Shown: positions 7,342 through 40,962, counted from the first letter of the stretch. The stretch is 41,192 nt of DNA from a virus (IMGVR_UViG_3300014047_000001:64001-105192); one strand, 5' to 3'. The notes: generated by a model not told the origin, from the sequence alone. Numbers and translations: made by a program.

Positions 7342-7354
7342 TGAAATATCTTTG

Positions 7355-10330: not shown

Positions 10331-10356
10331 AATTGTATAAAAAATGTGATTTAATT

Positions 10357-11472
10357 ATGTTGATAAAAGAAACACTTTATGCACTTGATGATGTTACGAT
10401 TATTCCCGCTCCTCAGTCAAGTGTAAGACACAGAACAGATATTAAAGTAACTTATGATAATGGGTATCTTCCTATTTTTACTGCTCCAATGGATGCTGTT
10501 GTTGGCGCATGTAATATGAAGATATTTGAAAAGAATAATATTATTCCTATTATGCCTCGTACAGAATCTATAGAAACACGTTTAGAATGGTATAAGAAAG
10601 GATATTGGATTGCAGTAGGTTTGACAGAATTTGAAAATTATTGGCTTCATGTTACAAATTTTCCATTACCAGATGATGATAATACAGTAAAAGTACTTAT
10701 TGACCAAGCTAATGGTCATATGGACATTCTTCCAGAATATATCAAGAAAGCAAAAAAGAATGCAGAGAAGTATAAGGTTAATCTGGAAATTATGATTGGT
10801 AATATTGCAGAACCTTGGGCTTATAAGATTCTTGCAGAAGCTGGTGCTGATTATGTTCGTATAGGAATTGGGGGTGGTTCATGTTGTATAACTGCTTCAA
10901 ATTCAGCCAATTACATGCCAATGGCATCACTTATTGATGGATGTAAAGAACTTAAAGACTCTTATAATCTAACCTGTAAGATTATTGCCGATGGTGGTAT
11001 TAGTAATTTTTCACGTGCTATTAAGGCATTAGCATTAGGTGCTGATTATGTTATGATGGGTTCATTACTTGGTTCTTGTTTTGAATCGGCAGCAGAACTT
11101 CATTGTAATTCAGTAGAAGATGAAGTAATTACTTATAATATGCATGATGATTTGACATGTGATATTTGTCATGTAATGTCTGAAGATGAAAAGAAAGAAT
11201 TTATTGCTACATATCATCCAACAAAGAATATATATGGAATGTCTACCAGAAAGGCACAAATGAAAATTAATCCAAATGCAAAACTTAAGACTTCTGAAGG
11301 TATTGAAAGAGTATTAAAAGTAGAATATACATTGGCACAGTGGGTTGATAATTTTAAATCATTCTTACGTACAGCAATGTCATATGATAATTTTACAAAT
11401 ATAAAAGAATTTATTGGCGGACCTACACTTAAGCTTTTATCAGAAAGTGCAAAGGCATCAATTAATAAATAA
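10357..11472 (+). CDS. guaC: GMP reductase / IMP dehydrogenase family (no CBS domains)
   Basis: LDDVTIIP, PIFTAPMDAV, IDQANGH, catalytic GIGGGSCCIT, IIADGGI, KALALGADYVMMG. guaC versus guaB is not resolved. Confidence 0.8.
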   Translation: MLIKETLYALDDVTIIPAPQSSVRHRTDIKVTYDNGYLPIFTAPMDAVVGACNMKIFEKNNIIPIMPRTESIETRLEWYKKGYWIAVGLTEFENYWLHVTNFPLPDDDNTVKVLIDQANGHMDILPEYIKKAKKNAEKYKVNLEIMIGNIAEPWAYKILAEAGADYVRIGIGGGSCCITASNSANYMPMASLIDGCKELKDSYNLTCKIIADGGISNFSRAIKALALGADYVMMGSLLGSCFESAAELHCNSVEDEVITYNMHDDLTCDICHVMSEDEKKEFIATYHPTKNIYGMSTRKAQMKINPNAKLKTSEGIERVLKVEYTLAQWVDNFKSFLRTAMSYDNFTNIKEFIGGPTLKLLSESAKASINK

Positions 11473-15092: not shown

Positions 15093-15779
15093 ATGAATCA
15101 GACAAATTTTGATAAATTCGCAAAGGGACGGGTAGATTCTTTGGTTTTAAATGACTATAAGAATTCACTATCAAAGAAATTGTTTAACCCTATGAATTAT
15201 AACCCTGCTACTATTATAGAGGAGCGTCAACTTAATGTAGCTGTTATGGATGTGTTTTCACGTTTGATGATGGATCGTATTGTTTTCTTAGGTGATGCAA
15301 TCGATGATGAAGTATCTAATATCATTACTGCTCAGCTTTTATTTTTGGATTCTGCTGAGCCTGGTAAGGATATTTCTATTTATATCAATTCTCCTGGCGG
15401 TAGTGTATATGCAGGTTTTGGTATTTATGATACTATGCAGTATATACAGAGTGACGTATCAACAATCTGTACAGGTATGGCTGCTTCAATGGCAAGTGTA
15501 TTGCTTGCTGCTGGTGAACAGGAAAAAAGGTTTGCCCTTCCACATTCACGTATTATGATTCATCAGCCAATGGGTGGCATGCAAGGCCAGGCATCTGATA
15601 TGGAAATTGAAATGAAGGAAATGAACCGAGTAAAGAAGGAATTATATGATATTCTTTCAACACATACAGGAAAGCCTTATAAGACTATTGTCAAGAATGC
15701 AGATCGTGATTATTGGATGACTTCTAAAGAGGCAGTTGAATATGGTATTATTGATGAAGTATTAACAAAACAGAAATAA
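15093..15779 (+). CDS. clpP: ATP-dependent Clp protease proteolytic subunit
   Basis: DVFSRLMMDRIVFL, YINSPGG and the catalytic triad motifs GMAASM, IMIHQP, DRD. Confidence 0.95.
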   Translation: MNQTNFDKFAKGRVDSLVLNDYKNSLSKKLFNPMNYNPATIIEERQLNVAVMDVFSRLMMDRIVFLGDAIDDEVSNIITAQLLFLDSAEPGKDISIYINSPGGSVYAGFGIYDTMQYIQSDVSTICTGMAASMASVLLAAGEQEKRFALPHSRIMIHQPMGGMQGQASDMEIEMKEMNRVKKELYDILSTHTGKPYKTIVKNADRDYWMTSKEAVEYGIIDEVLTKQK

Positions 15780-17694: not shown

Positions 17695-17976
17695 ATGTTT
17701 AAGAATCTGAAAGACATCCGTGAAGCAGCAAAGCAATATGAGGATTTATCAGGATATGTAAAACAATACCTTACAAATAGCAATAAGTGGAATGGTTATA
17801 CAGAGCTTGATTATATTGATTTTGCAGTAGACCAAGATTATATCGAAGCACATGTAAGTGGATTCTTTATGGGTGCATGGGATACATCAGTTATTGGTGT
17901 AAAGTATAATGATATTATAAATTTAATAAACAATAGTAATAAATCTTTTAACGAATTTAATTATGGACAAAATTAG
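17695..17976 (+). CDS. Hypothetical protein
   Basis: Co-oriented ORF. Confidence 0.65.
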   Translation: MFKNLKDIREAAKQYEDLSGYVKQYLTNSNKWNGYTELDYIDFAVDQDYIEAHVSGFFMGAWDTSVIGVKYNDIINLINNSNKSFNEFNYGQN

Positions 17977-18457
17977 TCGTGAGAATCTGGTACAGAATTT
18001 GAATCTTGTAAATTCACGTATCAAGGAAGCAAAGAAAAAGAAGTTTGAGTATAAGACAGATGAGCGTTATCTGACGGGTTGGGCTATTATTAGCCAGATT
18101 GAGGATTACAAGGAGCTTGTAGAGGTTCTTGCATATCTGAAGAGTCAGATGGCCAATACTGCTGGCGCTGCAGAGGAGTTGGGTATTGATCTTTCTAAGC
18201 TCGATGAGGAAGACCAGCCAACAGTTCCTACATTGTGTGGCTATCCTGTAACCGAGTGGATTGAGGATGTAAAGACTCGTAAGGCAGAGTTGGATAACAT
18301 TGCAACTATTGAGAAGTTGACAAAGGCCAAGGCACTGCTGGAGAATAACTTGTCAGAGGATGATCGTTTCAACATTCAGATGGCTCAGGTGGCTGACTTG
18401 ATGGGCGGCGACCTTGCTGAGACAGAAGCAGAGGCTAAGTCTGAGGAAATTGCTTAA
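17963..18457 (+). CDS. Hypothetical acidic helical protein
   Basis: ORF with marked AAG/GAG/CAG codon preference and higher GC than its neighbours. Confidence 0.7.
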   Translation: MDKISRENLVQNLNLVNSRIKEAKKKKFEYKTDERYLTGWAIISQIEDYKELVEVLAYLKSQMANTAGAAEELGIDLSKLDEEDQPTVPTLCGYPVTEWIEDVKTRKAELDNIATIEKLTKAKALLENNLSEDDRFNIQMAQVADLMGGDLAETEAEAKSEEIA

Positions 18458-18460
18458 TAT

Positions 18461-19309
18461 ATGAAGAAAAACCTTGTAATTACTAATTACGATAATTTCA
18501 AGGATCTTTCTTATTTCATTGGACAACACAAAATAGCTTTAGGAATGTTGGATGAAATTGAAAAATTTTATCTGGCATTCCTAAAATCAAAATTGATATA
18601 TAGCCTTGATATAAGTAAATTTCCTGGGAAAATTATCAAGCAGACAAAAGTATACAAAGATACCATACATCTTGATAGCAAATATGATGAAAAAATCTTT
18701 GATGCAGTAAAACCTGGTGATACTTTTACCGATTTTAAGCAGGGAGATAATAAACCTTATAAACCTTTTACTATTATTAAAGTTGGAAAAGCACAAAATT
18801 GTTGGAATCAATATAAGACTCGTACAATTACTATACGTTATAATGATGATGATCCAAAAATAGAATACCACAATTTATTATCAGACGTATTTTGTTCTAC
18901 TCATACGCATAGTGATAAATTTTTATGGCCTAAAGAAGAAGATTATAATAATCAATCTGGACTTAAAAAAGAATTAGAGAACGAGTGGAAAAAGCAAAAA
19001 AGTAAATTTTATATTATTACTGGACCAAAAGGGGAATTCTTTTATTTTTGTGATGAATCTGAATTGCCAGAATATAAATTTACCTTATCAGATGATTCAT
19101 CTAAATTAATTGTATATAAAGACACTTATAGTGGTGGAACGGAAACAGATAGATGGAAAACATTCTCTTATGAAGGATATACCCGTACATCATTTTCTTT
19201 TGATGTGAATACCGGTAACTTCTTGAAAAAAGATGAGGACTTTATTTATACTCGTAGAACAGAAATGAAAGGAGTGCATAATGGATGGCATCCTTATGAC
19301 GATGATTAA
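18461..19309 (+). CDS. TNYDNFK-family protein 1
   Basis: N-terminus LVITNYDNFKD shared with three downstream genes. Confidence 0.75.
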   Translation: MKKNLVITNYDNFKDLSYFIGQHKIALGMLDEIEKFYLAFLKSKLIYSLDISKFPGKIIKQTKVYKDTIHLDSKYDEKIFDAVKPGDTFTDFKQGDNKPYKPFTIIKVGKAQNCWNQYKTRTITIRYNDDDPKIEYHNLLSDVFCSTHTHSDKFLWPKEEDYNNQSGLKKELENEWKKQKSKFYIITGPKGEFFYFCDESELPEYKFTLSDDSSKLIVYKDTYSGGTETDRWKTFSYEGYTRTSFSFDVNTGNFLKKDEDFIYTRRTEMKGVHNGWHPYDDD

Positions 19310-19327
19310 TTATAAAGTATAATAATT

Positions 19328-19585
19328 ATGTTTGAGAAATTGCTCAAGAACTGGTTTAATATAAAAAACCAAACAGAATTAAATATTGCCACTGTATTAG
19401 GTTCGCCTATTGAATGCAGTGATGAACGTGGAGTTTACTACATTGAAGAAATATTCTTTGATGAAGATGGTGATTTGTGTGGATGGTGCATGGATGTAGA
19501 TGGTAAAGAATTTGAACTATCTGGTGTTTTTCTTTCAAGAGAAGATGAGATAAAGATTATTAACTGGTTAACAAATCATGCATAA
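19328..19585 (+). CDS. Hypothetical protein
   Basis: Co-oriented ORF. Confidence 0.6.
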   Translation: MFEKLLKNWFNIKNQTELNIATVLGSPIECSDERGVYYIEEIFFDEDGDLCGWCMDVDGKEFELSGVFLSREDEIKIINWLTNHA

Positions 19586-19895
19586 TATGGATAACATAAA
19601 AGAAATATTGAAGGATGATAATAAATTTGAGGATTTATTAACAAAATTAGATGAAGATTCTCAATATTTTCATGAAGATACCTGTTCTGTAGTATTTGTC
19701 AATAAAGATAGTGCAAGAAGTGATACATTAACTGATAGCATTACCTTCAGGGATTCTGATCTGGGTACTCGTATGGATTTGAATATTGGTGATGCTGCAT
19801 ATATATTTGATACTTTCTTGGATCTGTGTCCAGAAGCTATAGATTTCTTCAACAAGTTTATTGAATATAGAAACTTAAAGATTGTTAAGGTATGA
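19578..19895 (+). CDS. Hypothetical protein
   Basis: Co-oriented ORF; the start may be 19587. Confidence 0.6.
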   Translation: MHNMDNIKEILKDDNKFEDLLTKLDEDSQYFHEDTCSVVFVNKDSARSDTLTDSITFRDSDLGTRMDLNIGDAAYIFDTFLDLCPEAIDFFNKFIEYRNLKIVKV

Positions 19896-20767
19896 AATTA
19901 AAGAAAGTGGCTGATCATAAATCTACGAGAATTATTGGTAACTGGATATATACCAAATATGTTGCTACTGATGGTTCTCGTAGTGTACGCCATAAAATTA
20001 TGCATGTATTAGATATTTCTAATGATGGAGGAGAAGTATGCTATAAAATTAATCATATTAGCAGCTTATTTGAACCTGAATATTGGCAACGGGATGCAGT
20101 TTATCAAATGATGAATAATGCTGTTATGACAGATTCTCTGAAAGATATATTTGATAAAATGGTAAATCAATATGCGTCTTCTAATGTATATACATCTCAT
20201 ATGGATATTGGTGATGATACTGTATATATAGAAGACCGCGCAGGAGTTTATATTATTTCAGAAAAAGATGCTGAATATCTATTAGAAGTATTTAAGAATT
20301 TCAATAAATTACCAGTATCAAAGTATCGTTTAGATTTTTTGGTAAATTCTTATCCAGATGTTTATAGCAGAGATAAAAAGCTTTCTGAAGAAGATATGCA
20401 ATTTCAGTTTGTGCAAGCAGGTACAAAGCTCTATATAGTCAATTATAATACAAAGGTTCCTCAAATAAAGACATATACATTTGATGCGCCATTTACTATA
20501 CAGAAGGATAAGCATGCAAAAACTACTTATAATTCTTTTAAGAACACCATAACATTAGATCAGGAATTTTTAAACTATAAATCTGCATATCATGAGTATT
20601 TCCTTAATCTGAAAGATGCAGAGGAGCAAGCGATAATTCATATTAATGACTCATTATCATATGTTACTCATAGACTCAGAGAAATAGAGGATGAAAAAAC
20701 AGAGTTAACAAAATATGAAGCAGATTTAAAAACAGCATTAGCACAATATGAGTCAGCAGAAAAATGA
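19892..20767 (+). CDS. Hypothetical protein with a C-terminal coiled coil
   Basis: 291-aa ORF with an ATGA overlap to the upstream gene. Confidence 0.7.
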   Translation: MKLKKVADHKSTRIIGNWIYTKYVATDGSRSVRHKIMHVLDISNDGGEVCYKINHISSLFEPEYWQRDAVYQMMNNAVMTDSLKDIFDKMVNQYASSNVYTSHMDIGDDTVYIEDRAGVYIISEKDAEYLLEVFKNFNKLPVSKYRLDFLVNSYPDVYSRDKKLSEEDMQFQFVQAGTKLYIVNYNTKVPQIKTYTFDAPFTIQKDKHAKTTYNSFKNTITLDQEFLNYKSAYHEYFLNLKDAEEQAIIHINDSLSYVTHRLREIEDEKTELTKYEADLKTALAQYESAEK

Positions 20768-21860
20768 TTTTATTATAACCAATTATGACAACTTCAAAGA
20801 TGCAAGTTTATTTATAAAACAGTATTTTGAAGCAGAAAAAAGGATGAAGGATATTCAGAATTTCTTTCAATCTTTTTATATGTCAAAATTAATTCGCTCC
20901 GAGGATGTATATAAGTTAAAACCAAAATATGTTGTTTTTGGTGAATATGATACATCTCATAGTTGGTTTGATATAATAGCAGATGATGATTTGTATTTAA
21001 GCAGCTATTGTATATCTAAATTTAACAGAAAAAATGAATTAAAGCAAGAAATAAGTCATATTGGTGAATTATTAAAAGAAATATCGACACGTCTTAGAAA
21101 TGATTGGGCATGTTATTATATTTTAGATGCTAATAATATACTTCATGAATTTATTCCTGTAAAAGCGGTTGATACAATAAAAGTAACTTTTGATAAAGAA
21201 TCAATATTCATTACTGGACATTATTTTTATGGTTTTCAAATGAATGGAGATTTTGGTATGGCAGAAGAACATATATCACAAGTTACAAAAACTATTGTTA
21301 TTGATCCAAGCAATAATAATGTATTAACAGTAAAAACTTCTGTTAAACACATAACAACTCAAAAAATTAAAAAACATTTGGGTAGTCATGAATGTTATAC
21401 ACATGCATGGGTAAATGCGGCTGTTGATGGTGATTTTGATACATTTGAGTATGTTAATCCTTATAAACAAATAAAAAAGTATATAGAAGATAATTATGCC
21501 AACTATTATAAAGGATATATTCGTACTGTATATTTTAAAAGTGGACATTCTGGTTCATACGGCCCAATATATCTAGTAAAAACAAAAAAAGAATTAGAAT
21601 CTATATATAATGATATTATAGAGCATAATAAAGATATATTCAAAGAAGTATTGGGTATTGAATTAAATAAAAAACATTTATCTAGATATGATGATCTTTT
21701 TCAACTTCGGAGTACTGCAATTAAAGAAGCATATAAAGATATTAATTTAACTTATGGAAAAATGAAGAATATACCAGAAAATAAGTATCCTTTAACAGTA
21801 TGGTATAAATGCAGTACACATAAAAACCTTTTAGAAGAAAATGGCAAAGAAAACAGATAA
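20748..21860 (+). CDS. TNYDNFK-family protein 2
   Basis: FIITNYDNFKD; CYYILDANNILHEFIPVK. Confidence 0.75.
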   Translation: MSQQKNDFIITNYDNFKDASLFIKQYFEAEKRMKDIQNFFQSFYMSKLIRSEDVYKLKPKYVVFGEYDTSHSWFDIIADDDLYLSSYCISKFNRKNELKQEISHIGELLKEISTRLRNDWACYYILDANNILHEFIPVKAVDTIKVTFDKESIFITGHYFYGFQMNGDFGMAEEHISQVTKTIVIDPSNNNVLTVKTSVKHITTQKIKKHLGSHECYTHAWVNAAVDGDFDTFEYVNPYKQIKKYIEDNYANYYKGYIRTVYFKSGHSGSYGPIYLVKTKKELESIYNDIIEHNKDIFKEVLGIELNKKHLSRYDDLFQLRSTAIKEAYKDINLTYGKMKNIPENKYPLTVWYKCSTHKNLLEENGKENR

Positions 21861-22776
21861 ACTCGTAGTAACTAATTACGATAATTTTAAAAATGCGGAG
21901 TTCTTTAAGAAACAATATTTACAGGCGCAAGAAATGATAAAAGAAGTTAATGACTTCTATAAATCATTTTGTATGTCTAAATTGTTAACAATAAAGGATC
22001 TTATATCCTTAAAACCATATCTACTAATAAATTGCCCGTGGACTAGACATTTCATTTTTCCGGATTATAAGTATGAAATGTATATTAATGCACGATTAAA
22101 TGGCAAAGAATATGAAAAATGGGAGTTACCTGATGGAGATGATGCAGAAAAATCATTTGCTGAAATTCTTAAAGAAGCGAGGGATTATACAAATGTATGT
22201 ATAGGTGATTTGAATACAATATTTAGTAAAGATCCTCAATATGAGTGTTATTATGTATTGGATCAAAATAATTGTTTGCAGGAATTTATACCAGTAAAAT
22301 GTAAAAACACTATTTCTATTGATTTCAGTGGAGATGATATAAAAATTTCAGGCTATTATTATAGCTATTCAGAAACTGGTGCCCCACATGGAAATGCGCG
22401 ATCAGATATTAACAAAGTTATTAGAACAATATATATTAATTCCTCTAATAATAATGTAGTTGACGTACAATCAGAATATGAGCATCAAGAATCTGGGGAT
22501 GCAAATGGTAAAACATATTGGGATAAGCATATATCCTATGACATGACAGATAGAACAGCAAAATCTGTTAAAACACATCATTGGAATGGATTACGACGTA
22601 CAATAAAGAATGACTATGAACATTTCCGCCAAATGGCAAGAAATTATTATTTTGGATATACTTCAGAAGAGTATAAAATGATGATGTTAGAAAAATATGC
22701 AAAGGAATTTGAAAAAGAATTTCATCGTCCCATCACAAAAGAATACATAGATGGTTGCTGTAGTGCATGGGATTAA
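21841..22776 (+). CDS. TNYDNFK-family protein 3
   Basis: LVVTNYDNFKN; CYYVLDQNNCLQEFIPVK. Confidence 0.75.
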   Translation: MAKKTDKLVVTNYDNFKNAEFFKKQYLQAQEMIKEVNDFYKSFCMSKLLTIKDLISLKPYLLINCPWTRHFIFPDYKYEMYINARLNGKEYEKWELPDGDDAEKSFAEILKEARDYTNVCIGDLNTIFSKDPQYECYYVLDQNNCLQEFIPVKCKNTISIDFSGDDIKISGYYYSYSETGAPHGNARSDINKVIRTIYINSSNNNVVDVQSEYEHQESGDANGKTYWDKHISYDMTDRTAKSVKTHHWNGLRRTIKNDYEHFRQMARNYYFGYTSEEYKMMMLEKYAKEFEKEFHRPITKEYIDGCCSAWD

Positions 22777-22794
22777 AAAATATTTACATATTAT

Positions 22795-23727
22795 ATGCCA
22801 AGAAAAAGTAATACAGAGAAATTGGTTATAACCAATTATGATAATTTTAAAAATGCAAATTTCTTTATAAAACAATATTTTCAGGCTCAGGAGATGTTAA
22901 AAGAAGTAGAAGAATTCTTCGAATCTTTTAGAATGTCTAAACTAATAACATCTGAGCAACTGGTTAATATACATCCTAATATGTTTCTATATGAATATGG
23001 AGCTGAATGGACAGAGGCTTTTATAGAGCATGATACATTAGAAAAAACGCATGATTATGAATTATTGGATGGTCACTCATGGAGAGATAAACATGCATTT
23101 ACTGCAGAGGAAAAAGCAGAGCACTTGAAAAAAGTACGATCAGCGACACAAAAATTATGTGAAGATATAGCAATTCGTATGATTGGAAATTATGATTGCT
23201 ATTATGTTCTTGATAAGAAAAATAATTTACATGAATTTATTCCAGTAAAATCAGCAGATACTATTAAAACGGATTTTACAAAAAAGGAAATTATTATATC
23301 AGGATATTATTATCATTATCATGAATGGGGTGCACAATGGGGAAATTCTGAATCTGCAATGGATAAAATAATAAAAAAGATTATTATTGATCCAGCAACT
23401 AATAATGTTAAAGAAGTACGTGAAGAAACAGTAACAATAAGTAAGGGTAATGCTAATGGTAAAGATTATTGGTCAAATCATGAAGATTATTGTTTAACGG
23501 CACTTGATGGAAAAAACAAAGTATCCACTTCATCATGGGATAATGTGCATAAAGCTATGAGCAAATATAGTCATGAATTATTTGACAGACATTGTTATGC
23601 TAATACGCCAGAAGAAAAGGAAAAATTAAAAATAGAACTTCATAAAAAATTTGATGCTCGATATAAGAAAATTTATAAACAAGAATTAACAGATAAAGTA
23701 TTAAGTTATTATTTTAATATTAAATAA
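22795..23727 (+). CDS. TNYDNFK-family protein 4
   Basis: LVITNYDNFKN; CYYVLDKKNNLHEFIPVK. Confidence 0.75.
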   Translation: MPRKSNTEKLVITNYDNFKNANFFIKQYFQAQEMLKEVEEFFESFRMSKLITSEQLVNIHPNMFLYEYGAEWTEAFIEHDTLEKTHDYELLDGHSWRDKHAFTAEEKAEHLKKVRSATQKLCEDIAIRMIGNYDCYYVLDKKNNLHEFIPVKSADTIKTDFTKKEIIISGYYYHYHEWGAQWGNSESAMDKIIKKIIIDPATNNVKEVREETVTISKGNANGKDYWSNHEDYCLTALDGKNKVSTSSWDNVHKAMSKYSHELFDRHCYANTPEEKEKLKIELHKKFDARYKKIYKQELTDKVLSYYFNIK

Positions 23728-24528
23728 ATGGGATTTGATTTTGGATCTATAAAAAAGAAAAAGAATACTGCTAATATTATTGCAGATGATATTCGTAAAC
23801 AATATTTAGATGATATAAATTTACGAACAGATAAATGGGCAGCAATATTAGAATATAATAATCATGATTCTTATCAGCATATATTAAATGCATTTCATAT
23901 TGATTTTGATGAGAAGAATAGAATAACATATAGTATGGATATTATTCCTTGTATATTAAATAATAATGAATATAAGGAATATCTTATAGATCCTAATTAT
24001 ATTCAATATTATAGTGAAAAGAATTCTATATTTAAATCTACTGATCCTACTTGTAAAATTGCAGTATTATGTGCATATGGTAATGTAGATAATAATTACA
24101 GAGCATCATGTAAGCTTATAGAAAAATTATATGATATTGATATTATTGCAGATAATATCATATTTCAATTATCATTTGATAATGACATAACTATATATGA
24201 ATTATATAAATGGATAGTATTTGATTCACAACGGCATCCGGAACGTTTATATACATTTGTATATGATGATTATTTAGTCAGACATTATTTTTCATATGAG
24301 AATACAATATATGATAATGAAAAATATAGTATGTGGAGAAAATTTGTAAAAGGTGAACGCTCTATAAGAAATATTGTTCAAAAAGTAATGCTATTATATC
24401 ATAATTGTAATAGTATTTTTGGTAGGATAAAAATGGGATTAGGTTTTGTAAAGCATCCTACTGTTATTTTTACAACAAGATATGCAATAGCTACATGGCA
24501 TGATGTAGATAGATGTTTGGAAGTATAA
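23728..24528 (+). CDS. Hypothetical protein, N-terminus MGFDFGSIKK
   Basis: 266-aa ORF abutting the upstream stop codon. Confidence 0.7.
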   Translation: MGFDFGSIKKKKNTANIIADDIRKQYLDDINLRTDKWAAILEYNNHDSYQHILNAFHIDFDEKNRITYSMDIIPCILNNNEYKEYLIDPNYIQYYSEKNSIFKSTDPTCKIAVLCAYGNVDNNYRASCKLIEKLYDIDIIADNIIFQLSFDNDITIYELYKWIVFDSQRHPERLYTFVYDDYLVRHYFSYENTIYDNEKYSMWRKFVKGERSIRNIVQKVMLLYHNCNSIFGRIKMGLGFVKHPTVIFTTRYAIATWHDVDRCLEV

Positions 24529-28815: not shown

Positions 28816-31800
28816 ATGCCACAAATAATATTAAAAAATGTACAATTTACTAATGTAAAAGATAAAAGAACAGGTACAAAAACACCTACTACATTAACAT
28901 AGTCTAATGTTGGTAATTCTTCATTAGGTGCATATGTTAATAGTGCAAATTTTTATAAACTTGTTTCTGCCCTTGATATTGCATGGGGTGATATTAGTGT
29001 TGGTAATGGTGTTATCATTAGTGATACAGCAGATCTTATAAATTGGATTACTTCATTACCTGCTTCTGGTGGTAATGGTAAATCTGCATATGAATTATAT
29101 GTAGAAGAGGAAGAAGGAAAAGGAAATACTCCACTAAGTTTATCAGAATGGTTGGAGTCATTATAGGGACAACAAGGTATTGCTGGTGTATCACCTCATA
29201 TTGATCCATCTACCGGCAATTGGTTTATTGGTGAAACTAATACAGGAGTACATGCACATGGTATTGATGGTTCACAAGGTCCACAAGGTTTACAAGGTAA
29301 ATCTAATTATGAATTATACCTTGAAACTGTACCACAAGGGGAAACACCATTAACACAATTAGAATGGTTAGATTCATTAAAAGGATAGAATGGTACAGAT
29401 GGTGTAAATGGTACAGATGGTGCCAATGGTAAATCTGCATATGAAATATATGTAGATCATGTACCTAATGGCTCTACTGCACTTACAGAAGAGGATTGGT
29501 TGGCATCTTTGAAAGGAAAAGACGGTAAAGACGGTCCACGCGGTTTTGAAGGTAAATCTGCATATCAAATATATTTTGATAATACAGAAGATCCACTATC
29601 TGAAGAAGAATGGTTAGCATCTTTGAAAGGCGCAGATGGTACCATGTCTTTTGAAGAGTTAACAGATGAACAAAGAGCATCTCTTGTTGGTGAAACTGGT
29701 CCTGCAGGTCCATCAGCATATCAATCATATCGTAATACAACAACAGATAATCCAATAAAAACAGAAGCAGAGTGGATAGCCTCATTACATGGCCAGACGG
29801 GTGCTGATGGTACAACTCCACATATTGATGCAAGTACAAAACACTGGTTTATCGGAAATACAGATACTAACATCCTTGCAGAAGGTGTTAATGGACAGGA
29901 TGGTAAACCTGGTGCAGATGGTTCAAATGGTATTACTCCACATATTGATCCAACAACTGGTAACTGGTTTATCGGTGAGACTGATACAGAAGTACATGCT
30001 CAGGGTGTTCCGGGCATAGATGGTTCAAATGGTATTACTCCACATATTGATGCTTCTACCGGTAACTGGTTTATCGGAGAAACAAATACAGGAATACATG
30101 CGCAAGGTGAAATTGGTCAATCAGGTGCAGACGGTATTACTCCACATATTGATGCTTCCACTGGTAACTGGTTTATCGGAGAAACGAATACAGGAATTCC
30201 TGCACAAGGTCCTACTGGACAAAATGGTGCTGATGGTTCTACAGGTAAATCTGCATATGAATTATATGTAGATGGTATACAAGAAGGAGAACCATTATCA
30301 CAAGAAGATTGGCTTGCATCATTAAAAGGTAATGAAGGTGATTCTGCATATGAAGTTGCAGTAGCTAATGGATTTGTTGGTACAGAACAACAATGGTTAG
30401 ATTCATTATTACCATCTATTGGTACAGATCCAAGTACTAATAATGCAAGTGATATTTACTGGTTTATTAAGGGAGAAAAAACACAATATCGCGCAATTCC
30501 TCAAATCATAAGTATTACTTCAGCTGCATATGAGGCTTTACAGGAAAAAGATGAAACTGCTATATATGTAATAACAGATTCACAATATAATCAGGATAAT
30601 GAAGTAACATACAGAATTGGTAATATTACACCTACTACAGATATGAACAATCTTGATGTAAGTGTACGCCGTTCTAATAATGTTGTATATTTTGATTTTA
30701 CTTTACCTATTGCTAATTTAGATATTAACAATTTAACAGAAGCACAAGCAACATTATTAAGAGGTAAGTCAAATTATCAGATATATGTAGATAATCACGA
30801 TGTTGATTTAGATGGTCCATTATTGACAGAAGAACAATGGTTAGCAACATTAAAGGGTGAAGTTGGTAATGATGGTAAATCTACATATGAATTATATGTT
30901 AAAAATTATATCAGTACTCATGGTGATGATACTGGCATGCTAACAGAATCTGAATGGTTGAATAGTTTAATACCACAAATTGTAAAAGATCCTTCTGATA
31001 ATTTATATTGGCACATCAATAATCAGAAAACACAATATCGTGCATTCCCTGGAATTCAATTCTTAACATTAGATGAATATAATGCATTAGAAACAAAGGA
31101 AGATGATGTTGTTTATATCATTGACAATGATAAAGATGCAACAGCATTAACATTCAATATAGGTAACGTTACTACTTCTGCTTTAGAAACAGACGCATCA
31201 GTAAATATTCGCAGAATAGACAACTCTATATATTTTGATTTTGTGTTGCCATTCTCAATCGACAGCTCTGAATATAAGGGAGAGTCTGCTTATGAAATTT
31301 ATAAAAGAAATGCATCTACAGGTGAAGTATTATCAGAAACTGCTTGGTTAGATTCATTAAAAGGAAAATCTGCATATGAATTATTTGCTGCAGCTAATCC
31401 GACTTCTGTATATACAAATGAATCTCAATGGTTAGCATCTTTGAAAGGGGAAACTGGTAAAGACGGTTCACAAGGTCCACAAGGTCCAATGCCAACTATT
31501 ACCATAAACTAGGAAGGTTATTGGGTTGTTAATGATCAAGTAATGCAAAGTGCTCTTGGAAGATTACCAGAAATTCGTAATGGTTTATATATTGATCCCG
31601 AAACAGGTGATGAACTTAGCATGAAAACTTGGTGGATAGATGGCGCTGATACTAATGTTCCTACATCATTAGGTGTAGATGTAACAACATTACTTAATAA
31701 AATCGGCGCTATTGGAAATGCACAAGAATTTGAACCATCTACTTATTATACAGCTGAAGATGAAGAAGTTATCGCAGGTACAAAAGAAGAAGGAGATATA

Positions 31801-34800
31801 AAAACACCTGCAGTAGCAGCAGTTCCACATACGGTAAAATCTTATGTAGATAATGCTGTTGCTAATGTACATGTAGATATAGATGCAAGTAATATCTATA
31901 CAAAATCTGAAGTAGATCAAAAATTTGTTGATCTCATTGGTCAGGCACCTGAAACATTAGACACATTGAAGGAACTTGCAGATAAGCTCAGTGATGAAGA
32001 TACATCATTAGGACAATTAAATGCAGTACTTTTAAATAAAGCAGATACATCTAATACTTATACAAAATCTGAAGTTAATACTTTATATAATAATATAAAT
32101 TCTTCTTTAAATTATTATGTATTAAAGACAGATTTAGACGATACAGAAAAAGTAATAGCAACCACATTAGTTCAGTTGAATGAGTCTGTTACAAATATAG
32201 ATGCAAGTATTATTAATATCAGACAAAATGCAGGTTCAGTGAATCCAAATGATTTATCTATATATGAACTTAAAGAAGATTTGATAAATGACTTATCTAT
32301 ATATGAATTAAAGTCTGACTTGGCAAATGACTTATCAATCTATACATCAAAAGCATATGTTGATCAAAAATTTGTTGATCTCATTGGTCAGGCACCTGAA
32401 ACATTAGATACATTGAAAGAAATTGCAGATAAACTTAGTGATGAAGATACTTCATTAGGTCAACTAAATACAATACTTGCTGTTAAAGCAGATACATCTA
32501 CTACTTATACAAAATCAGAAGTAAATGCTTTAATACTTCCTGCTGATTGGGATAATAATGATCTAGAATCATCATAGTTTATAAAGAATAAACCATTTGG
32601 TACTTATAGAGTAACAAAATATAATGAATATAGTAGTAATAATTTCCAATTAAATAATCAATTAGATAAAACAGCGGAAGGTCATTTATATCATTCAGAT
32701 TTTAACTATATAGGTTTAAGTAATGATTTATCAAATGTATTTAGAACTGCTAATAATAGATTTATTGTCTATGTTAAAGGAAAATATGCAGGAATATATA
32801 AAATATTATATAGTAATACTTATGATGCTTATTATACAGACAATTATGATTTTATGTATTATAAACCTGTAAATAATTCTAAATATGAATGGGCATTTAA
32901 GTCTCATACTCCAAATTAGCTTTCTATTGCATGGTTAGATATAAATGATGTATATACTACTGTAGAAAAAGAAACATTTACATTATCAGATTTTGTATTC
33001 TATTTCTTAGATAATAATGGTGATATTATTTTAAATACGCCAATAGAATCAAAATATGTCAATATTAATAATATTATTTCTGATAAAGCAGTTCCTGCTG
33101 AAGATAAACCTTTTGGTGAAATATTTAAAAATATTATTATTAGCAAAACTGATATTTATAATGAATCTGAATAGGCATTTAATCAAACAGGTCCATCTCA
33201 TGGAGGCGTAAGTGGATTAATATTCTCAGAAGTATTACTGGCAGGAGATATAATTATATTGGAAGTTGATGGAGAAGATTATGGTGCAGCAGAAGTAATA
33301 AGTGAAGCTTATGGTGGTAGTTTTATAAAAATTGCCGGTATTGGTGATTATGATTCTTTCCCATTTAAAACTAATTGGTCATTATTTGAAAGTGGTAGTG
33401 CTTATACCCTTGCTATTAATGATGTAAACAATAATTTAAAATCTGGTACACATTCATTAAAAATTAGTAAGGCAATAATAGGTAAAGCAGATGATATTAA
33501 GAAAATTGCATCTAAATATATAGATTATAATAGCTATATAGAAGATAAGTCAATATCTGATTCAGAAAAACCTTTTGGTGAATATTATTATTATAGTGAA
33601 GAAGAGGATTTCTTAGAAACAACTGCAACAACACCAGCAATAGATGCACATTATTATTTCTACCCATGGGCAGGTTCTACTGAAAAATATCCGACACCTT
33701 TAGAAGAAGCAGATAGAGTAAATATTTACATTGATAATGTATTAATGTTTACTTGTATAATACCTGTAAGATTTTCTGGAGTAAGTTTTGATAATGGTGT
33801 AACGTTAGCTCCTAATAGTGCAAGTAATATTTCTAGCATATGTATAAGTTATAATGAGTCTCATTGGAAATATGAAGCATCTACTGAATATAAAGTTACT
33901 TTAAAAATACAACATAGATTAGCAGGTATTAAAACACTAGATGCTAAATATATACCTAGTAGCTTATTATCAAATTATGTTACTGTTGCTGATATAAGTG
34001 CAAATGAATATGTTATTGCTTCTGCATTAATAGAATTGAATAATAATAAAGCTGATAAGGATACAATATATACAAAGTCAGAAATTGATAGTATTATTGA
34101 GAATCTTGATACTGGTGTAGATCCAAATGACTTATCTATATATGAATTAAAGTCTGACTTGGCAAATGACTTATCTATATATGAGCTTAAGAGTGATTTA
34201 ACTAATGACTTATCTATATATGAATTAAAGTCCGATTTAGAAAATGATTTATCAATTTATGTTTTAAATAGTTCATTAATTGAAATTGAAGAAGTTATAT
34301 CTGGTGCTATTTCAAGTTTGAATACTAATAAAGTTGATGTTTCTGTATTAAATGATTATGTACAGAAAACTGCATTAGAGAATTCTGAAAAGGTAATAGC
34401 TGCTGCATTAGTTCAATTGAATGAATCTGTTACAAACATAGACGCAAGTATTATTAATATTAAACAAAATGGTACTATAAATTCAAATGACTTATCAATC
34501 TATGAACTTAAAGAAGATTTGATAAATGACTTATCAATATATCAACTTAAATCTACATTAATAAATGATATTTCTATGTATGAGCTTAAGTCTGATTTGA
34601 AAAATGATTTGTCAATCTATGTATTAAATTCATCTTTAATCGATGTCGAAGAAGTTGTTGCAGAATCTATTACACAATTGAATGATGCACTTGATGAATT
34701 ATCAGGAAATGTTTATACAAAAGATGAAATAGACAATCTTATAATAACATCTAATGACTTATCTATATATGAATTAAAGTCCGATTTAGAAAATGATTTA

Positions 34801-36750
34801 TCTATATATGAGCTTAAGAGTGATTTAACTAATGACTTATCTATATATGAATTAAAATCAGACTTGGCTAATGATTTATCAATCTATGTTTTAAATAGTT
34901 CATTAATTGAAATTGAAGAAGTTATATCTGGTGCTATTTCTGGTTTGAATACTAATAAAGTTGATATTTCTACATTAAATGATTATGTACAGAAAACTGC
35001 ATTAGAGAATTCCGAAAAAGTAATAGCTACTGCATTAATTCAAATAAATGACTCTATTGCAAACATAGACACAAGTATTATTAATATTAAACAAAATGGT
35101 ACTATAAATTCAAATGACTTATCAATCTATGAATTAAAATCAGACTTAGCAAATGATTTGTCAATCTATGAACTTAAAGAAGATTTGATAAATGACTTAT
35201 CTATATATGAATTAAAGTCTGACTTAGCTAATGACTTATCAATTTATGAATTAAAATCAGACTTAGCTAACGATTTATCAATCTATGCATTAAAGACATA
35301 TATCGGTACATTACCAAACAAGACTGAAAATATTTACTATACTCAAGAAGAAATAACAAACGCTTCTGTTGGCGATGATGCATATGGTAAAACAACTGCT
35401 GATATAAAAACTCCTGCAACTCAATATAAAGATTTAATAGAAGTTATTGAGGACAATGAAGAAGTTACCGCAGCTGCTATTGTAGACATGAATAATAAAG
35501 TTACTGATATAAGTACAACGTTATCAGAGATATACACAAAAACAGAAATTGATGCAAGTATTAATGATCATTATTATACAAAATCTGTTACAGATAATAC
35601 ATTTGCTACAAAGGAAAGTCTAAAATTAGTCGCTACTTCTGGCTCATATAATGACTTAATTGATAAACCAAACATTGACTTAAACAGAGAAACGGCAGAT
35701 GGACTTTATCAGCCAAAAGGCAATTATTTAACTGAACACCAGTCTTTAACAGATTATGCGAAAAAAGCAGATATAAGTTAGGGTTATTATACAAAAGCTG
35801 AAGTTGATAATGCAATTTCTACTAATAATGAAAATTATTATACAAAAACTATTGCTGATGGTAAGTATTTAACTTCTAACGATATATCTACATTAGCAGA
35901 TAAATCTGAATTGCCTACTATACCTACAACAATTAGTTCATTTGAAAATGATAGCAAATATTTAGTTGCTAATGATATATCTACGAAGGCTGATAAATCT
36001 GAATTATTCAGTGGTTCGTATAATGATTTATCAGATAAGCCTACTATACCTACAACTATTGCACAATTAACAGATAAAGATGATTATGTTACAAATGCTT
36101 CATTGAACAAGCGTATAGAAGATTTGATTGGAACAGCACCAGAGAATTTAGATACACTCGGTGAAATTGCTACTGCATTAAGTGATAGTAGTGATACCGT
36201 AGCTGGTATAGTGACAACACTTGCAAGTAAAGCAGATACAAATATGGTTTATACTAAAGCAGAAGCAGATGCAAGTTATCAGCCTAAAGGTAATTATCTG
36301 ACTGCACACTAGAGTTTAGCAAATTATTATACAAAAGCTGATATTGATGCAAGTATAATTGAATATGCACAGCCTAAAGGAAGTTATTATACACAATCGG
36401 AAATAAATACCAAAGTAACTGATATAAATACGTCTATAAATTCTGTAAAAACTCGCTTAGACAATATTGATGCATCATGGGTTAACTATTATATAAAATC
36501 TGAAATTGATACAACAGTAACAAAATTAGATACATCTATAAAAAATGGTGACAGCTCTATTGCAACACTTATGCAGAAAGTTGATAATATTTTCGGTAAT
36601 ACTGTAAAAATAGATAATGGTAATGATTCATCAACAATCAAAGACTATATAGATGATCAGATATATGTTTTAACACGTGCAGTAAACCTATTAAGTTCAA
36701 CATTAGAATAGGCACTTGCGCGTATAGATACTTTAGAAGGAAATGCATAA
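28816..36750 (+). CDS. Giant multi-repeat tail fibre-like protein (2,644 aa, TAG=Gln)
   Basis: ORFs 29500, 31543, 33259 and 35911 share one frame, and the gaps I translated contain no TAA/TGA. Repeats include GKSAY/WLASL, TPHIDxxTGNWFIG and APETLDTLKE; YLTEH-CAG-SL aligns with YLTAH-TAG-SL. Confidence 0.85.
34126..35290 (+). repeat. Coding 39-bp (13-aa NDLSIYELKSDLx) tandem repeats in four blocks, nested in a ~627-bp duplication
   Basis: 17 NDLSIY-type units here plus 3 near 32250-32345; the VLNSSLIEIEEVISGAIS block occurs at 34261 and 34888. Confidence 0.9.
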
Positions 36751-36757
36751 TATAAAG

Positions 36758-36788
36758 AATAAAGGGATCATTAAATGATCCCTTTATT
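36758..36788. terminator. Bidirectional terminator between the fibre gene and the RT gene
   Basis: AATAAAGGGATCAT-taa-ATGATCCCTTTATT. Confidence 0.75.
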
Positions 36789-38091
36789 TTAATATATAAT
36801 CTATATCATAATAATTTTTATCAAATGCTAATGATTTAATCTGTTTATATATGCATAATTTATCTATTTTCACTTCATCATGAATATATACATACTTGCG
36901 CCAATATTTTAACATACCACTATCTATAAGACATTGTTTCCTTATTTTATATGTTGCAAACGGTTTCAAAAATCCTAAGTAACTATTAATGACAGATGTA
37001 AACATTTCTATATCTTTTATAGGTATCTGATAATGGTTTTTATCCATATATTTAGCATACAAATGCCATTGCATTAATTTCTTTTTAAACGTTTTTACTG
37101 TTCGTTTCATTATATATTTTCTGCCTGGCTTTAAACAACATCCTATAAAATTTACACCGTTATGTATTTCCTAAAGATAAAATTTCCTTTCAGATAATTG
37201 TAAATATAAATGATTTTCCAAAAAGTCTTTTAATATCGGTACAATTTCAAGTAATTTATTTTTATCCCGGCTTATTATTATAAAATCATCTACATACCTG
37301 CCATATCCTTCTGTATTATTAAATGTATTTTCATCTTTATAAATAAACCCATGCTATAATACAAATTTATCTAATTCTGATAAAAAGAAATTTACGAATA
37401 TCTGACTGGTGAGATTTCCAATAGCAAAGCCTTTATCCTGATTTTTCGGTATATTAAATAATGATTTATGAAAAGCTATTGGTTTCCATGCTGCCTGGGG
37501 CATTTTTCTAATACAATTATACTGTGGCTTATTATATATTATTTCATTTATCAACCATAAATCATAATCATATTCTTCTGGTTTAATGTAGTTTTTTAGA
37601 AAATCACGGAATTTATAATATAAAAGATTTTTATCAATAGATACAAAACATGCACGGAGATCAAGTTTAAGAACATATGTAGGAATAGTATAATTATTAC
37701 TTATATTATAAATCTACTCATATATTCTGTCAATACCAAATTTTGTACCTTTACCTTCTCGACAACTGTATGTATCTAATATCCATTCATAGTTTTCTAT
37801 ATATTGCAATATGCGATTTATTATAAGATGATGAATAATGCGATCACGAAAATCAGCAGCAAAAATTTCACGGTCCGTTGGATAATGTACAACAAATGCT
37901 ATAGAATTACCAATATCATAGGATTTATTATTAAGTTCAAGATATAATTTATATAGCTCTTCATCTTCGTTAATTTCAAATTTTATAGAATTGACTGTAT
38001 TTCTCTTTCTTTTTCTACAATCTATATAAGCTCTATATAATTCTGAAAAGCTTACAAATTCATACTAAATTATATCAATAATATTATTCAT
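36784..38091 (-). CDS. DGR reverse transcriptase (435 aa, 4 TAG=Gln)
   Basis: AYIDCRKRKR, REIFAADFRDRIIHHL, YSCREGKG, LKLDL, GFAIGNLTSQ (DGR-type SQ), YGRYVDDF, YL-Q-EIHNGVNFIG. Confidence 0.95.
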
Positions 38092-38105
38092 TAATTTTAA
38101 ATAAA

Positions 38106-38146
38106 ATATATTAGCAACAATAAAAATTATTATGTTGCTAATATAT
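38106..38146 (-). other. Hairpin in the TR-RT spacer
   Basis: 14-bp perfect arms ATATATTAGCAACA / TGTTGCTAATATAT. Confidence 0.65.
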
Positions 38147-38196
38147 AAATGAAAATTAAATTTAAATAATGATTACAAATTATTACTATCTATAAT

Positions 38197-38335
38197 CTTA
38201 GGAAGGGCCTGCACCAATTACTGTTGTACTTATTGTTGTTGTTCAAGTTGCCATTGTTGGTATTGAAATTGCTACTGTTGTTAGCTGAATACTAAGTAGA
38301 CGACCAGTAATTGGTACCAGACCTTACAGGTGTAC
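38197..38335 (-). ncRNA. DGR template repeat (TR)
   Basis: AAC/AAT-rich 139-nt copy of the VR, located between avd and RT. Confidence 0.95.
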
Positions 38336-38610
38336 TACTGTATATTCGTAAAACAATACAGCAAATCCATAATGCAACACTTATTAGGCAAACAAGAATA
38401 TGCCAACATTTCATAAGTATTTCAATTATTTTATGAAAAGGCGTATAGTCTCTTCTAATATCACTCACCTATGATATAATTATATAATTTTTATTTTTTA
38501 TTATATAATGGAGTGTTCCTTATGAATAGATAACAATTATATAGCTCTACTAAACATTTTACTATATATCATTATTTTCTTTGTATGCTAATCCAGCAAT
38601 ATAATTTAAT

Positions 38611-39075
38611 TTATTCTGATTCGTTATTATCAGTATTAGTCTTTACCATATTTTGGATATTATTATTTTTTTGCTGAATATCCTTCTGAAGAGTATTTAT
38701 CCATCTATTCAAATCTATACCTAATGAAGATAAATTTGAAATAATCATATCAGTTTTATGGAGATCTAATATATGCTATTCATATAAAGTTTTTATACCT
38801 AATGATACATTTTTCAATGAACCTTTACTCTTCAGAGCATACTTATATTTAGTCTATATTTTCTTAGAATCATATGACACTGCCATATTCTTTATAACTT
38901 CTTGCATATTATTTATAATATCATAACCTATAGTTTCCCTTATATCTTTTCTTAATGTAGTGATAACAGGTAAATATAAATTATAAAATGTTTGTGATTT
39001 CTTCCAAATATTTGTATCAGAAAATGCTTTCTTCTATCTATATGGAGCATGTGTCACATCTTTCTCTATTTTCAT
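38611..39075 (-). CDS. avd: Avd-like accessory variability determinant (154 aa, 3 TAG=Gln), missed by the ORF track
   Basis: Basic helical protein (IWKKSQTFYNLYLPVITTLRKDIRETIG...LGIDLNRWINT) in the canonical position upstream of TR-RT. Confidence 0.75.
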
Positions 39076-39139
39076 TGTATTATTATATATTAATTTATAT
39101 ATTATATTATATTATATTATGATATTGTGAAAAGTTATA

Positions 39140-39152
39140 ATAAATATAAAAA
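39140..39152 (+). promoter_or_regulatory. Candidate late promoter ATAAATATAAAAA
   Basis: 14 nt upstream of the DGR target ATG. Confidence 0.55.
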
Positions 39153-39166
39153 AATAGTTAAAATTT

Positions 39167-40351
39167 ATGCCTTTTAGTAAACTATATAACAGTCGTTCAG
39201 AATTCTTAGCAGATTATTCAAATTTAAGCCAACTGGATACATGGGTAGCATATGATAAAGCAAATGTATATTTTAAAAATACATTTAATACATAGAAATA
39301 CAATTTATACGATGTTTTATATGCATCGTCTGATGGTATATTGAATATAACCGGCGACGGTACACCAATTGCCGTATGTGCAATACCTTCTTCACATATG
39401 CCTGATGGAAAAGCAAGATTCATAGCATTAAAAGATTGTACTAATTCAGCTGGTGAATAGCAAACATGGATATATGGCGGTTATACATGTTAGCTAAACA
39501 GCAAAGACTCAGAATTTCATAATTTAGGTTCCGGATGGGGTTATCCTTGTATAGGCAAACCGTCAACGGATGATGATCGTTCATAGCAAACAATATTCGG
39601 TTCATATCAGCAACTTCATTGTATGAATCAAGGACGAGGATTTCCTGCATTTGAATTTGATGATAATTCAGTATCTATTGTATATAATGGAAATACTGGT
39701 TATAAAGTTGCAGATCTTTTTGATGAGAAAACAAAACATTATGTCCGTTATGATTTACGAGATAATAGTACATCATCTCATGGTTGGGGAGGTACATTCG
39801 CTTCACCTTTTTTGACGGATAACAGTAAAAATACTGTATTTTTTATATAGAATTTCAATAATTCTAATAATGAAGCTATATTGTTTAATGGTAAAAGTTT
39901 AACATAGAAATTAGTAAATATTTCATTAGAAACTTTAGAAGCCAACGGTAATGCTACTATTTATAATGGTGAAACAGATACTATATAGAATTTATTAGGT
40001 TATAATGCATCAAATTTAGTATATAATGATGCATCTATTAATAAACGCATGGATGGATGCCATTTTTACCCTGCTGCATTGGCATGCTATGTATACAGTA
40101 CATTGGGTACATCTCCAGGAAATTGGTATTTAGGATCCGGTGGTGAAATGATGTATGTTTTTGCAAGATGTAAAAGTCTTAATACTGTTATTAGTTCTCT
40201 TGGCGGTACACCTGTAAGGTCTGGTACCAATTACTGGTCGTCTACTTAGTATTCAGCTAACTGCAGTAGCTATTTCAATACCTACATTGGCTGCTTGTTC
40301 TACATCGATAAGTACTGCAGTTTTTGGTGCAGGCCCTTCCTAAGCTTATGA
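39167..40351 (+). CDS. DGR target protein with a C-terminal CLec-fold-like domain (394 aa, 8 TAG=Gln)
   Basis: One frame from 39167 to TGA; PAALAC...GNWYLGSGGEM...YWSSTQYS...CRPF; VR at the 3' end. Confidence 0.9.
40206..40344 (+). repeat. DGR variable repeat (VR)
   Basis: Gap-free alignment to the reverse complement of 38197-38335; 16 mismatches, all at TR adenines. Confidence 0.95.
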
Positions 40352-40355
40352 CCGA

Positions 40356-40370
40356 AACCCCAACGGGGTT
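40356..40370 (+). promoter_or_regulatory. GC-rich hairpin just downstream of VR (candidate target-recognition hairpin)
   Basis: AACCCC-aac-GGGGTT, 4 nt after the stop codon and absent downstream of TR. Confidence 0.65.
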
Positions 40371-40382
40371 GAGGAATAAGCT

Positions 40383-40427
40383 GCGTTTATTTAATAGGGG
40401 CTTTGAGCGCCCCTATTAAATAAACGC
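40383..40427. terminator. 19-bp perfect inverted repeat between convergent genes
   Basis: GCGTTTATTTAATAGGGGC-tttgagc-GCCCCTATTAAATAAACGC. Confidence 0.65.
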
Positions 40428-40446
40428 CTTAAATTTTTTACAGTAT

Positions 40447-40962
40447 TTAATGAATCATATTTTTTAACTTAAATATAAAATCTACTATTTCCTGAATAGT
40501 TGAAGAAGTAATATTAAAATTTTTTATTTCATTTATTATATCATCATTATTCGCCGCTGCTGTATTTGTTTGCATTTGTATTTTTTCTATTTCATTATCA
40601 TTATAAGCAGGGGAATTCATCAATTCTAAATATTGTTCTTTTAGCATATCAAAATCTATATCATTAATATTTAGATATATTTTTATAATATTCTTATCAT
40701 CTGATATACTTATATATAATTTTTTATTCTGCTGTTCCTGTGATAGTTTTTCAATAATTTTATCGCACGGGCCACCAATTTTCAAAATATCACTTTTTAT
40801 ATATTTTACATATTTCTTTTTCAGAGTATAATGTGGCATAATTAATTTATAAAAAGAAAATGCGCTGAGATTATAAGCATTATAAAAATTTCCGTTTTTA
40901 TATAGAAATATAATTTTTTCTGTATTTTCCTTTTCTTGATTTATTATTTCTTTAATACTCAT
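40447..40962 (-). CDS. MutS domain I-like DGR accessory protein (MSL-type)
   Basis: IFLYKNGNFYNAYNLSA resembles the MutS-I GxFYE motif; adjacent to the DGR target. Confidence 0.65.
   Translation of the reverse strand: MSIKEIINQEKENTEKIIFLYKNGNFYNAYNLSAFSFYKLIMPHYTLKKKYVKYIKSDILKIGGPCDKIIEKLSQEQQNKKLYISISDDKNIIKIYLNINDIDFDMLKEQYLELMNSPAYNDNEIEKIQMQTNTAAANNDDIINEIKNFNITSSTIQEIVDFIFKLKNMIH

Follow-up and report, generated by a model that had tools for sequence, protein, structure and literature searches.

The 41,192-nt stretch of viral DNA analysed here (the window; IMGVR_UViG_3300014047_000001:64001-105192), which belongs to a 135-kb contig, in our firm opinion contains a complete DGR in which nearly all VR differences between wild populations lie at template adenines; the element likely acts by late mutagenic retrohoming and thereby diversifies a surface of the target protein that is predicted to be lectin-like. 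By the mechanism described in the text of PMC5758913, the RT and Avd would copy the TR RNA and mis-incorporate opposite A, and the cDNA would then replace the VR. An earlier note on this DNA had proposed such an element, and we found all of its components in place: RT, TR, an avd-like gene, a target with its VR, a hairpin past the VR and a 171-aa gene (Table 1).

The TR/VR pair and the layout of the cassette

The TR and VR are the arms of the longest inverted repeat of the window. When the TR is read from 38335 to 38192 on the minus strand and aligned with the VR, the two differ at 17 of 144 positions, each of which is an adenine in the TR; 12 of these changes are A>T, 4 are A>G and 1 is A>C. 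The count of 16 mismatches in 139 nt that had been given previously for positions 40206-40344, all at TR adenines, proved to be exact (P 6e-9, hypergeometric). The VR lies in frame at the C-terminal end of the target, and 11 of the 14 AAY codons of the TR are altered in it. TR/VR was the sole pair with such an adenine bias in a set of 436 repeat HSPs from the 135-kb contig, and no second VR was found in this contig, which is a fragment, so that remote targets are possible.

The 3' end of the VR includes 20 nt that are identical to the TR, and a G/C hairpin begins 7 nt further on. The last ~25 nt of the VR are likely the IMH, and this short hairpin is likely the target-recognition hairpin of the DGR. 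One post-VR hairpin had been noted; two were present (z -9.4 for 40340-40440), of which the 19-bp one is likely a terminator. On the other side of the TR, the spacer that leads to the RT start probably forms the 3' portion of the RNA of the DGR. Translation of the region in code 15 gave four ORFs, namely those for RT, the Avd-like protein, the target and the 171-aa protein, and an ORF at 38130-38468 (minus strand) that runs across the TR was treated as a by-product of the open frame of the TR. A promoter scan scored at chance level (42 vs 44).

Table 1. Positions of the DGR components and of the adjoining fibre-like gene, in nucleotides of the window
Feature	Coordinates	Strand	Description
Fibre-like neighbour outside the DGR	28816..36750	+	2644 aa, repetitive, 10 TAG; convergent with RT; PF24243 Phage_tail_C, E 6e-8
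DGR RT	36784..38091	-	435 aa in code 15; TAG at codons 9, 126, 246, 307
TR-to-RT-start spacer	38092..38191	-	AT-rich; long predicted hairpin (RNA fold, without shuffle comparison)
TR	38192..38335	-	144 nt, 50 adenines; in the target's frame 14 AAY codons and one TAG
Avd-like gene	38611..39075	-	154 aa; TAG at codons 14, 74, 100
Target	39167..40351	+	394 aa; 8 TAG, one of them at codon 43; stand-alone gene; no assignment for N-terminal ~290 aa
VR	40206..40349	+	codons 348-394 of target
Hairpin, 6-bp	40356..40370	+	G/C-rich, 3-nt loop; 7 nt past VR
Hairpin, 19-bp	40383..40427		between convergent target and MSL-like genes
MSL (MutS-I-like) candidate	40447..40962	-	171 aa, no TAG

TAG recoding and the predicted role of the target

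The coding density of the contig is 72% in code 11 and 91% in code 15, and TAG appears to be read as Gln. RT codon 307 is TAG in the window, and at this position 118 of 118 homologues have Gln, so that a reading of TAG as Glu does not fit; the RQ motif of the terminase agrees with this assignment, and so do tandem repeats, in which CAA or CAG takes the place of TAG. The other three TAGs of the RT fall in variable columns in which Gln is not the commonest residue, and broad paralog counts for the identity of TAG were crude, noisy and uninformative. No tRNA, suppressor tRNAs included, was found on the contig fragment. Within RT, Avd and target, which carry 4, 3 and 8 TAGs, respectively, 15 of 37 Gln codons are TAG, compared with 182 of 1266 elsewhere (P 1e-4); the TAG density of the DGR genes is not clearly higher than that of other recoded genes (P 0.054), and TAG is absent from 98 of the 146 non-overlapping ORFs of at least 80 aa. 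Retranslation in codes 11 and 15 bore out the claim that RT, avd and target are broken or invisible under code 11: the 171-aa gene alone of the four cassette ORFs is intact in that code, and the ORFs listed at the RT locus are only pieces of 108 and 66 aa. A 108-aa C-terminal RT piece (P0145), from a 135,441-bp contig, is present in a public collection.

Because RT, Avd and target all carry in-frame TAG, the DGR belongs to a recoded class of genes which has been linked to late genes in the text of 10.1101/2021.08.26.457843. TAG occurs early in each reading frame (codon 9 of RT, 14 of Avd and 43 of target). We infer that RT and Avd would be made only once the phage had switched the cell to reading TAG as Gln, and that mutagenesis would thus share the late phase of the virion genes. 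Such gating would be a property of the recoded class and not a lock specific to the DGR.

The C-terminal domain of the target resembles Lcl_C/DUF1566 (CLec2-type), as seen through its homologues and the Atlas. PF07603 covers the C-terminal part of the target's four distant homologues, the Atlas comparison placed the target at 0.96 to a cluster that is 36% Lcl_C, and hhalign of the target with P0123 gave 96.6%. Direct searches of the target against Pfam and PDB gave no match, and the predicted structure had a pLDDT of 37 for the C-terminal 154 aa and 30 for the full protein (8 close rows). The target is a predicted lectin-like binding protein, which the DGR likely retunes. It is flanked by fibre-like genes on one side, where a 411-aa gene upstream of the 2644-aa fibre-like gene matches tail-fibre PHROGs, and by two BspA-type LRR genes on the other. 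A similarity between the N-termini of the target and of a BspA-type LRR protein encoded on the same contig was considered and was not significant (29 of 5000 shuffles, in 145 comparisons).

We suggest that the target, earlier taken for a receptor-binding protein and encoded apart from the fibre, may be exposed on the virion, where it would bind a Bacteroidota surface glycan or protein. It is possible, though we consider it rather unlikely, that the protein is instead a late non-virion or accessory protein of lectin fold that binds, for example, some component of host defence, of the surface or of mucus. That possibility draws on the target being a stand-alone gene in which no fibre or collagen domain was found, and on its homologues in Lak-A1, B1 and C1, which lie among metabolic/unknown, non-structural genes where inspected and have neither TR nor RT. 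The location of the window's gene between the fibre-like and BspA-type LRR genes, however, and its heavy recoding, which is as seen in structural genes, argue for a virion-exposed protein, as does the text of 10.1101/2025.11.01.686033, in which the DGR targets of gut phages are typically tail proteins.

VR variation between populations and the state of the enzymes

At least 20 runs from at least 11 studies, among those listed, contain part of the stretch; they are mostly from bovine, goat, sheep and unspecified animal gut, and the runs listed include no RNA run. We aligned contigs of four runs (X1, X2, X4 and X6) to positions 39400-40425; the X6 contig does not include the VR. The VR of X1 was identical to that of the window, and X1 may be the window's source. 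X2 and X4 are runs from two other studies. The X2 VR had 14 differences from that of the window, with 13 of 13 among those listed at TR adenines, and the X4 VR had 17, all 17 at TR adenines; the changes in both were confined to codon positions 1-2. Over the 806 nt that precede the VR, X2 and X4 each had 2 differences among those listed. In X1, X2 and X4, the contigs that carry the TR had the same letters and the same flanks, and differed from the VR of the window at the same 17 positions, with TR unchanged over the part covered. The restriction of variation to TR adenines that had been anticipated for positions 40206-40344 was therefore observed between runs, and activity of the DGR in nature is confirmed.

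Seven full-length target proteins, the window's included, contain 6 distinct VRs. Four of the 6 public members are wholly reachable from the window TR by A changes, one of them being equal to the window's; the VRs of P0128 and P0129 are nearly alike and have changes that are unreachable from the window TR (non-A). Among the relatives, whose RT and avd variation we drew from protein clusters, Avd is shortened to 109 aa in P0148 and P0149, and RT is split or truncated in P0141+P0133, P0138+P0139 and P0132+P0136. The RT of P0142 has a change at the invariant W202 and a read-through end. One target with a non-A VR is located on a 9768 contig, which is the same size as the contigs of the truncated Avd and of the W202-changed RT. 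From the truncated and split members and the non-A VRs, therefore, it seems that the DGR machinery has been lost in some strains, a linkage that is drawn from equal-sized contigs and in which assembly errors are possible. The cassette may have arrived horizontally, and could be lost again.

These relatives with broken RT or Avd bear on a further possibility, that the DGR is real but the copy in the window is inactive, the VR differences between samples being old retrohoming products that became fixed in separate strains. We consider this improbable. Besides the broken relatives, it draws on the result that no within-sample mixture of VRs was resolved, from run contigs that cannot give within-sample rates. 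Yet the RT and Avd of the window are full length, and because the VRs differ at 13-17 adenine sites, with no non-A change and next to a near-identical flank (2 listed differences in 806 nt), the comparison points to recent retrohoming.

The RT contains the motifs GNLTSQ at residues 225-230 and YVDD at 266-269, as had been reported, and matched Pfam RVT_1 (E 7.7e-11) and PHROG 1423 (E 1.4e-67); a motif of the GNL[TS]SQ type is present in 117 of 118 RT homologues. A profile built from the window RT and nine homologues had PDB 8ub7 as its best match (E 5e-44), followed by a group II intron maturase (6e-14). We take 8ub7 to be the Bordetella DGR RT complex. A grouping with group II introns or retrons, which the earlier note had named as the outcome contrary to a DGR, is not what was seen, since the profile ranks 8ub7 far above both. 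The class of the RT was assigned from the motif, this ranking of profiles and the matches among phages. In a tree confined to 24 close homologues (23 of the 120 matches listed were used), the RT of the window sits on a long branch together with one 73% relative. That the RT is of group II intron, retron or defence type, and the repeat an unrelated duplication, is hardly credible, for although NCBIfam models of group II (56 bits against a cut-off of 300), of retron St85 and of Drt3a were matched weakly, these matches are far under cut-off, the DGR RT structure is the better match by 30 orders of magnitude, and the adenine-only differences and the Avd-like neighbour also stand against it. Matches in the phage collection were to Bacteroides phages F2/F4/F1 (33-35%), with Bacteroides uniformis DGR phages included among the top ones, to BPP-1 brt (26%) and to the RTs of crAss-like phages (24-25%). 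A metagenome scan yielded one RT fragment at 96%, the flank of which matches the same fibre gene, and scans of viral contigs gave no close relative of the RT or the terminase.

The Avd-like protein matched NF033474 (E 1.7e-6; 28.3 bits, below the family cut-off of 80) and PHROG 3206, 'Avd protein of DGR' (E 0.0016). Avd is the sole name given by both libraries, NCBIfam and PHROGs, each match being weak, and the gene is just upstream of the TR; no match was found among PDB sequences. As for the gene that had been called MutS-I-like, it is in place and its Atlas neighbours are MutS_I-like (by ESM Atlas features, 0.94 to a cluster of which 22% is MutS_I; TM 0.59 to a MutS_I-named model), but the identity is a lead only, the search against Pfam having been negative.

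Lak relatives and known DGRs

The phage is a rumen-type giant phage and a divergent relative of the Lak phages. The description of it as a Lak-like megaphage was right as to kinship, Lak phages being the nearest named phages and the code agreeing, though the relationship is a divergent one. Of the 146 ORFs, 57 match the Lak-A1 record, 46 of them over half their length, with a median identity of 43%. The terminase is likewise 43% identical to all 15 Lak records, which is far above other named phages, and RecA/UvsX is 81% identical to that of Lak-A1. Lakviridae, according to the text of PMC11165621, share 72 core proteins at 70% identity; here, in a comparison of a fragment with one genome, 2 of the 46 well-covered Lak-A1 matches were at least 70% identical, in addition to RecA at 81%, which falls short of that standard. 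The same text describes Grandevirales as grouping with Lak phages in a proteomic tree, as using code 15 and as having genomes of 476-660 kb. The 135-kb contig is estimated to be 24% complete.

A survey of Lak genomes for the cassette, as had been proposed, gave no RT match in any of Lak-A1, B1 and C1 (0 of 3, with a positive control). The RT was also absent from two partial IMG/VR Lak-like contigs, and no Lak record was among the best 60 of 78 RT matches in the phage collection. The C-terminal domain of the target, on the other hand, is matched by eleven Lak records; the homologues in Lak-A1, B1 and C1 are recoded proteins of 297-380 aa, and Lak-A1 has two target-like genes and no adenine-biased repeat. 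The DGR would thus have been either gained in the present lineage or lost from the others.

The supposition that Lak DGRs are unreported held for the main texts of PMC6784885, PMC8346664, PMC11165621 and 10.1101/2021.08.26.457843, in which we found none. A literature search also gave no report of one, though one could be contained in the annotation tables that supplement the Lak papers or in the MGV/UHGV catalogues of DGRs. No Lak-type receptor-binding protein is named in the text of the three Lak papers searched. It is an evenly balanced question, in our estimation, whether this is the first DGR of a Lak/Grandevirales-like phage, one of about half a megabase from the rumen, which would couple a lectin-like family that is DGR-less in Lak-A/B/C to enzymes made after the code switch, and whose strains would stop hypermutation by losing RT or Avd on repeated occasions. 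The hypervariable lectin-like gene is a candidate for the host-recognition protein, as are its small homologues in Lak-A/B/C. DGR surveys carried out in code 11 overlook megaphage DGRs, and since one phage has both intact strains and broken ones, they lend themselves to a natural comparison of when hypermutation is worthwhile.

Neither the mechanism nor its combination with recoding is new, both being known from other systems, and the Lak-related lineage is where we found no report. As described in the text of PMC5758913, the BPP-1 DGR shares with the present one the C-terminal VR, the adenine-specific changes, an AAY-rich TR, a G/C-rich inverted repeat past the VR and the GxxxSQ motif of the RT. 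The proposed BPP-1 layout was borne out in the order avd-TR-RT, but not in full: BPP-1 is arranged mtd-avd-TR-brt, with an Mtd domain (PMC5758913), whereas the present target is encoded on the opposite strand and is Lcl_C/DUF1566-like. The present cassette also differs from BPP-1 in its additional MSL-like gene, which follows the target, in an RT that is 26% identical to brt, in TAG = Gln and in its very large phage. It is closest to Architecture D of that text, where components on different strands are recorded among catalogued DGRs, MSL-bearing cassettes included (PMC5758913). The MSL-containing DGRs described there have an avd together with a small MutS-like gene (112-283 aa, a range into which 171 aa falls) and DUF1566-like targets (category 'd'/CLec2), and Msl occurs in Bacteroides DGRs according to the text of 10.1101/2024.11.15.621889. 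The present element differs from these in that its phage is recoded, and its MSL assignment consists of Atlas leads.

The coding densities given above (72 to 91%) are similar to those published for Lak phages (69 to 89%; texts of PMC6784885, PMC8346664 and PMC11165621), and the structural block is syntenic with that of Lak. Recoded DGRs are known from crAss-like phages: the text of PMC12386605 gives DGRs in 18 of 43 Zeta crAss genomes, with amber codons in seven RT genes, and that of 10.1101/2023.08.07.552389 describes active DGRs, with diversification under way, in three code-15 infant persisters, one of which lost its RT by deletion. As far as those sources describe them, these crAss-like elements and the one reported here are alike in the in-frame TAG of the RT, which conceals the element from standard tools, in a C-type-lectin target, which for the present element is a prediction, in diversification in the wild and in the loss of RT in some strains. 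In contrast to them, the phage that carries the present DGR is related to Lak and has a T4-like terminase, is not a member of Crassvirales, and has an RT that is distant from those of the crAss-like phages.

Codon 361 of the DGR target

An in-frame TAG lies within the TR, in the region of window positions 38294-38296, and corresponds to target codon 361, at which each of the full-length target sequences (7/7) carries Gln. Under code 15, a stop cannot be obtained from the AAG codon of the TR.

Related RTs and strains

A relative of the window RT (P0002, P0146; 445 aa) is 73% identical to it, and the two have in common an 11-aa insert before YGRYVDD; this likeness in sequence suggests that a sister phage carries the same DGR. 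The DGR of 2 IMG/VR contigs (L012 and L014) has one TR and two VRs, and its RT compares at 38% with the window RT. For RT, Avd and the target, we also compared strains by their clustered proteins (P0128, P0129, P0132-P0144, P0148 and P0149), and observed that Avd is truncated, or RT split or altered, in several strains. In one strain, a frozen VR with non-adenine changes seems to be paired with damaged machinery.

Adjoining genes and Lak relatives

Directly after the DGR lie 2 large recoded genes for BspA-type LRR proteins, which are possible adhesins. Within the window, the members of a row of related TAG-free genes share an N-terminal ITNYDNFK motif, and Lak homologues exist for the 3 genes that we have named by motif.

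Coordinates of features
Feature	Location	Remarks
DGR	L012 7873-9109
DGR	L014 8746-9982
BspA-type LRR gene	L004 277-2943	888 aa
BspA-type LRR gene	L004 2940-8081	1713 aa; C-terminal Laminin G domain
Presumed OmpA-like gene	window 1148-2293
Recoded repeat protein	window 7352-9049	565 aa; ~24-aa repeats
Its paralogue	contig 61045-61935
Presumed IMPDH/GMP-reductase-like gene	window 10333-11472
Presumed ClpP-like gene	window 15093-15779
Row of related TAG-free genes	window 17963-24528	282, 370, 311, 310 aa
Target-like gene, Lak-A1	L005 9560-10453
Target-like gene, Lak-B1	L008 14152-15294
Target-like gene, Lak-C1	L009 14341-15318

Neither RT nor TR accompanies the target-like genes of Lak-A1, B1 and C1. 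These are candidate static lectin-like genes, and their TAG-rich products (297-380 aa) have a C-terminal domain that resembles that of the DGR target.
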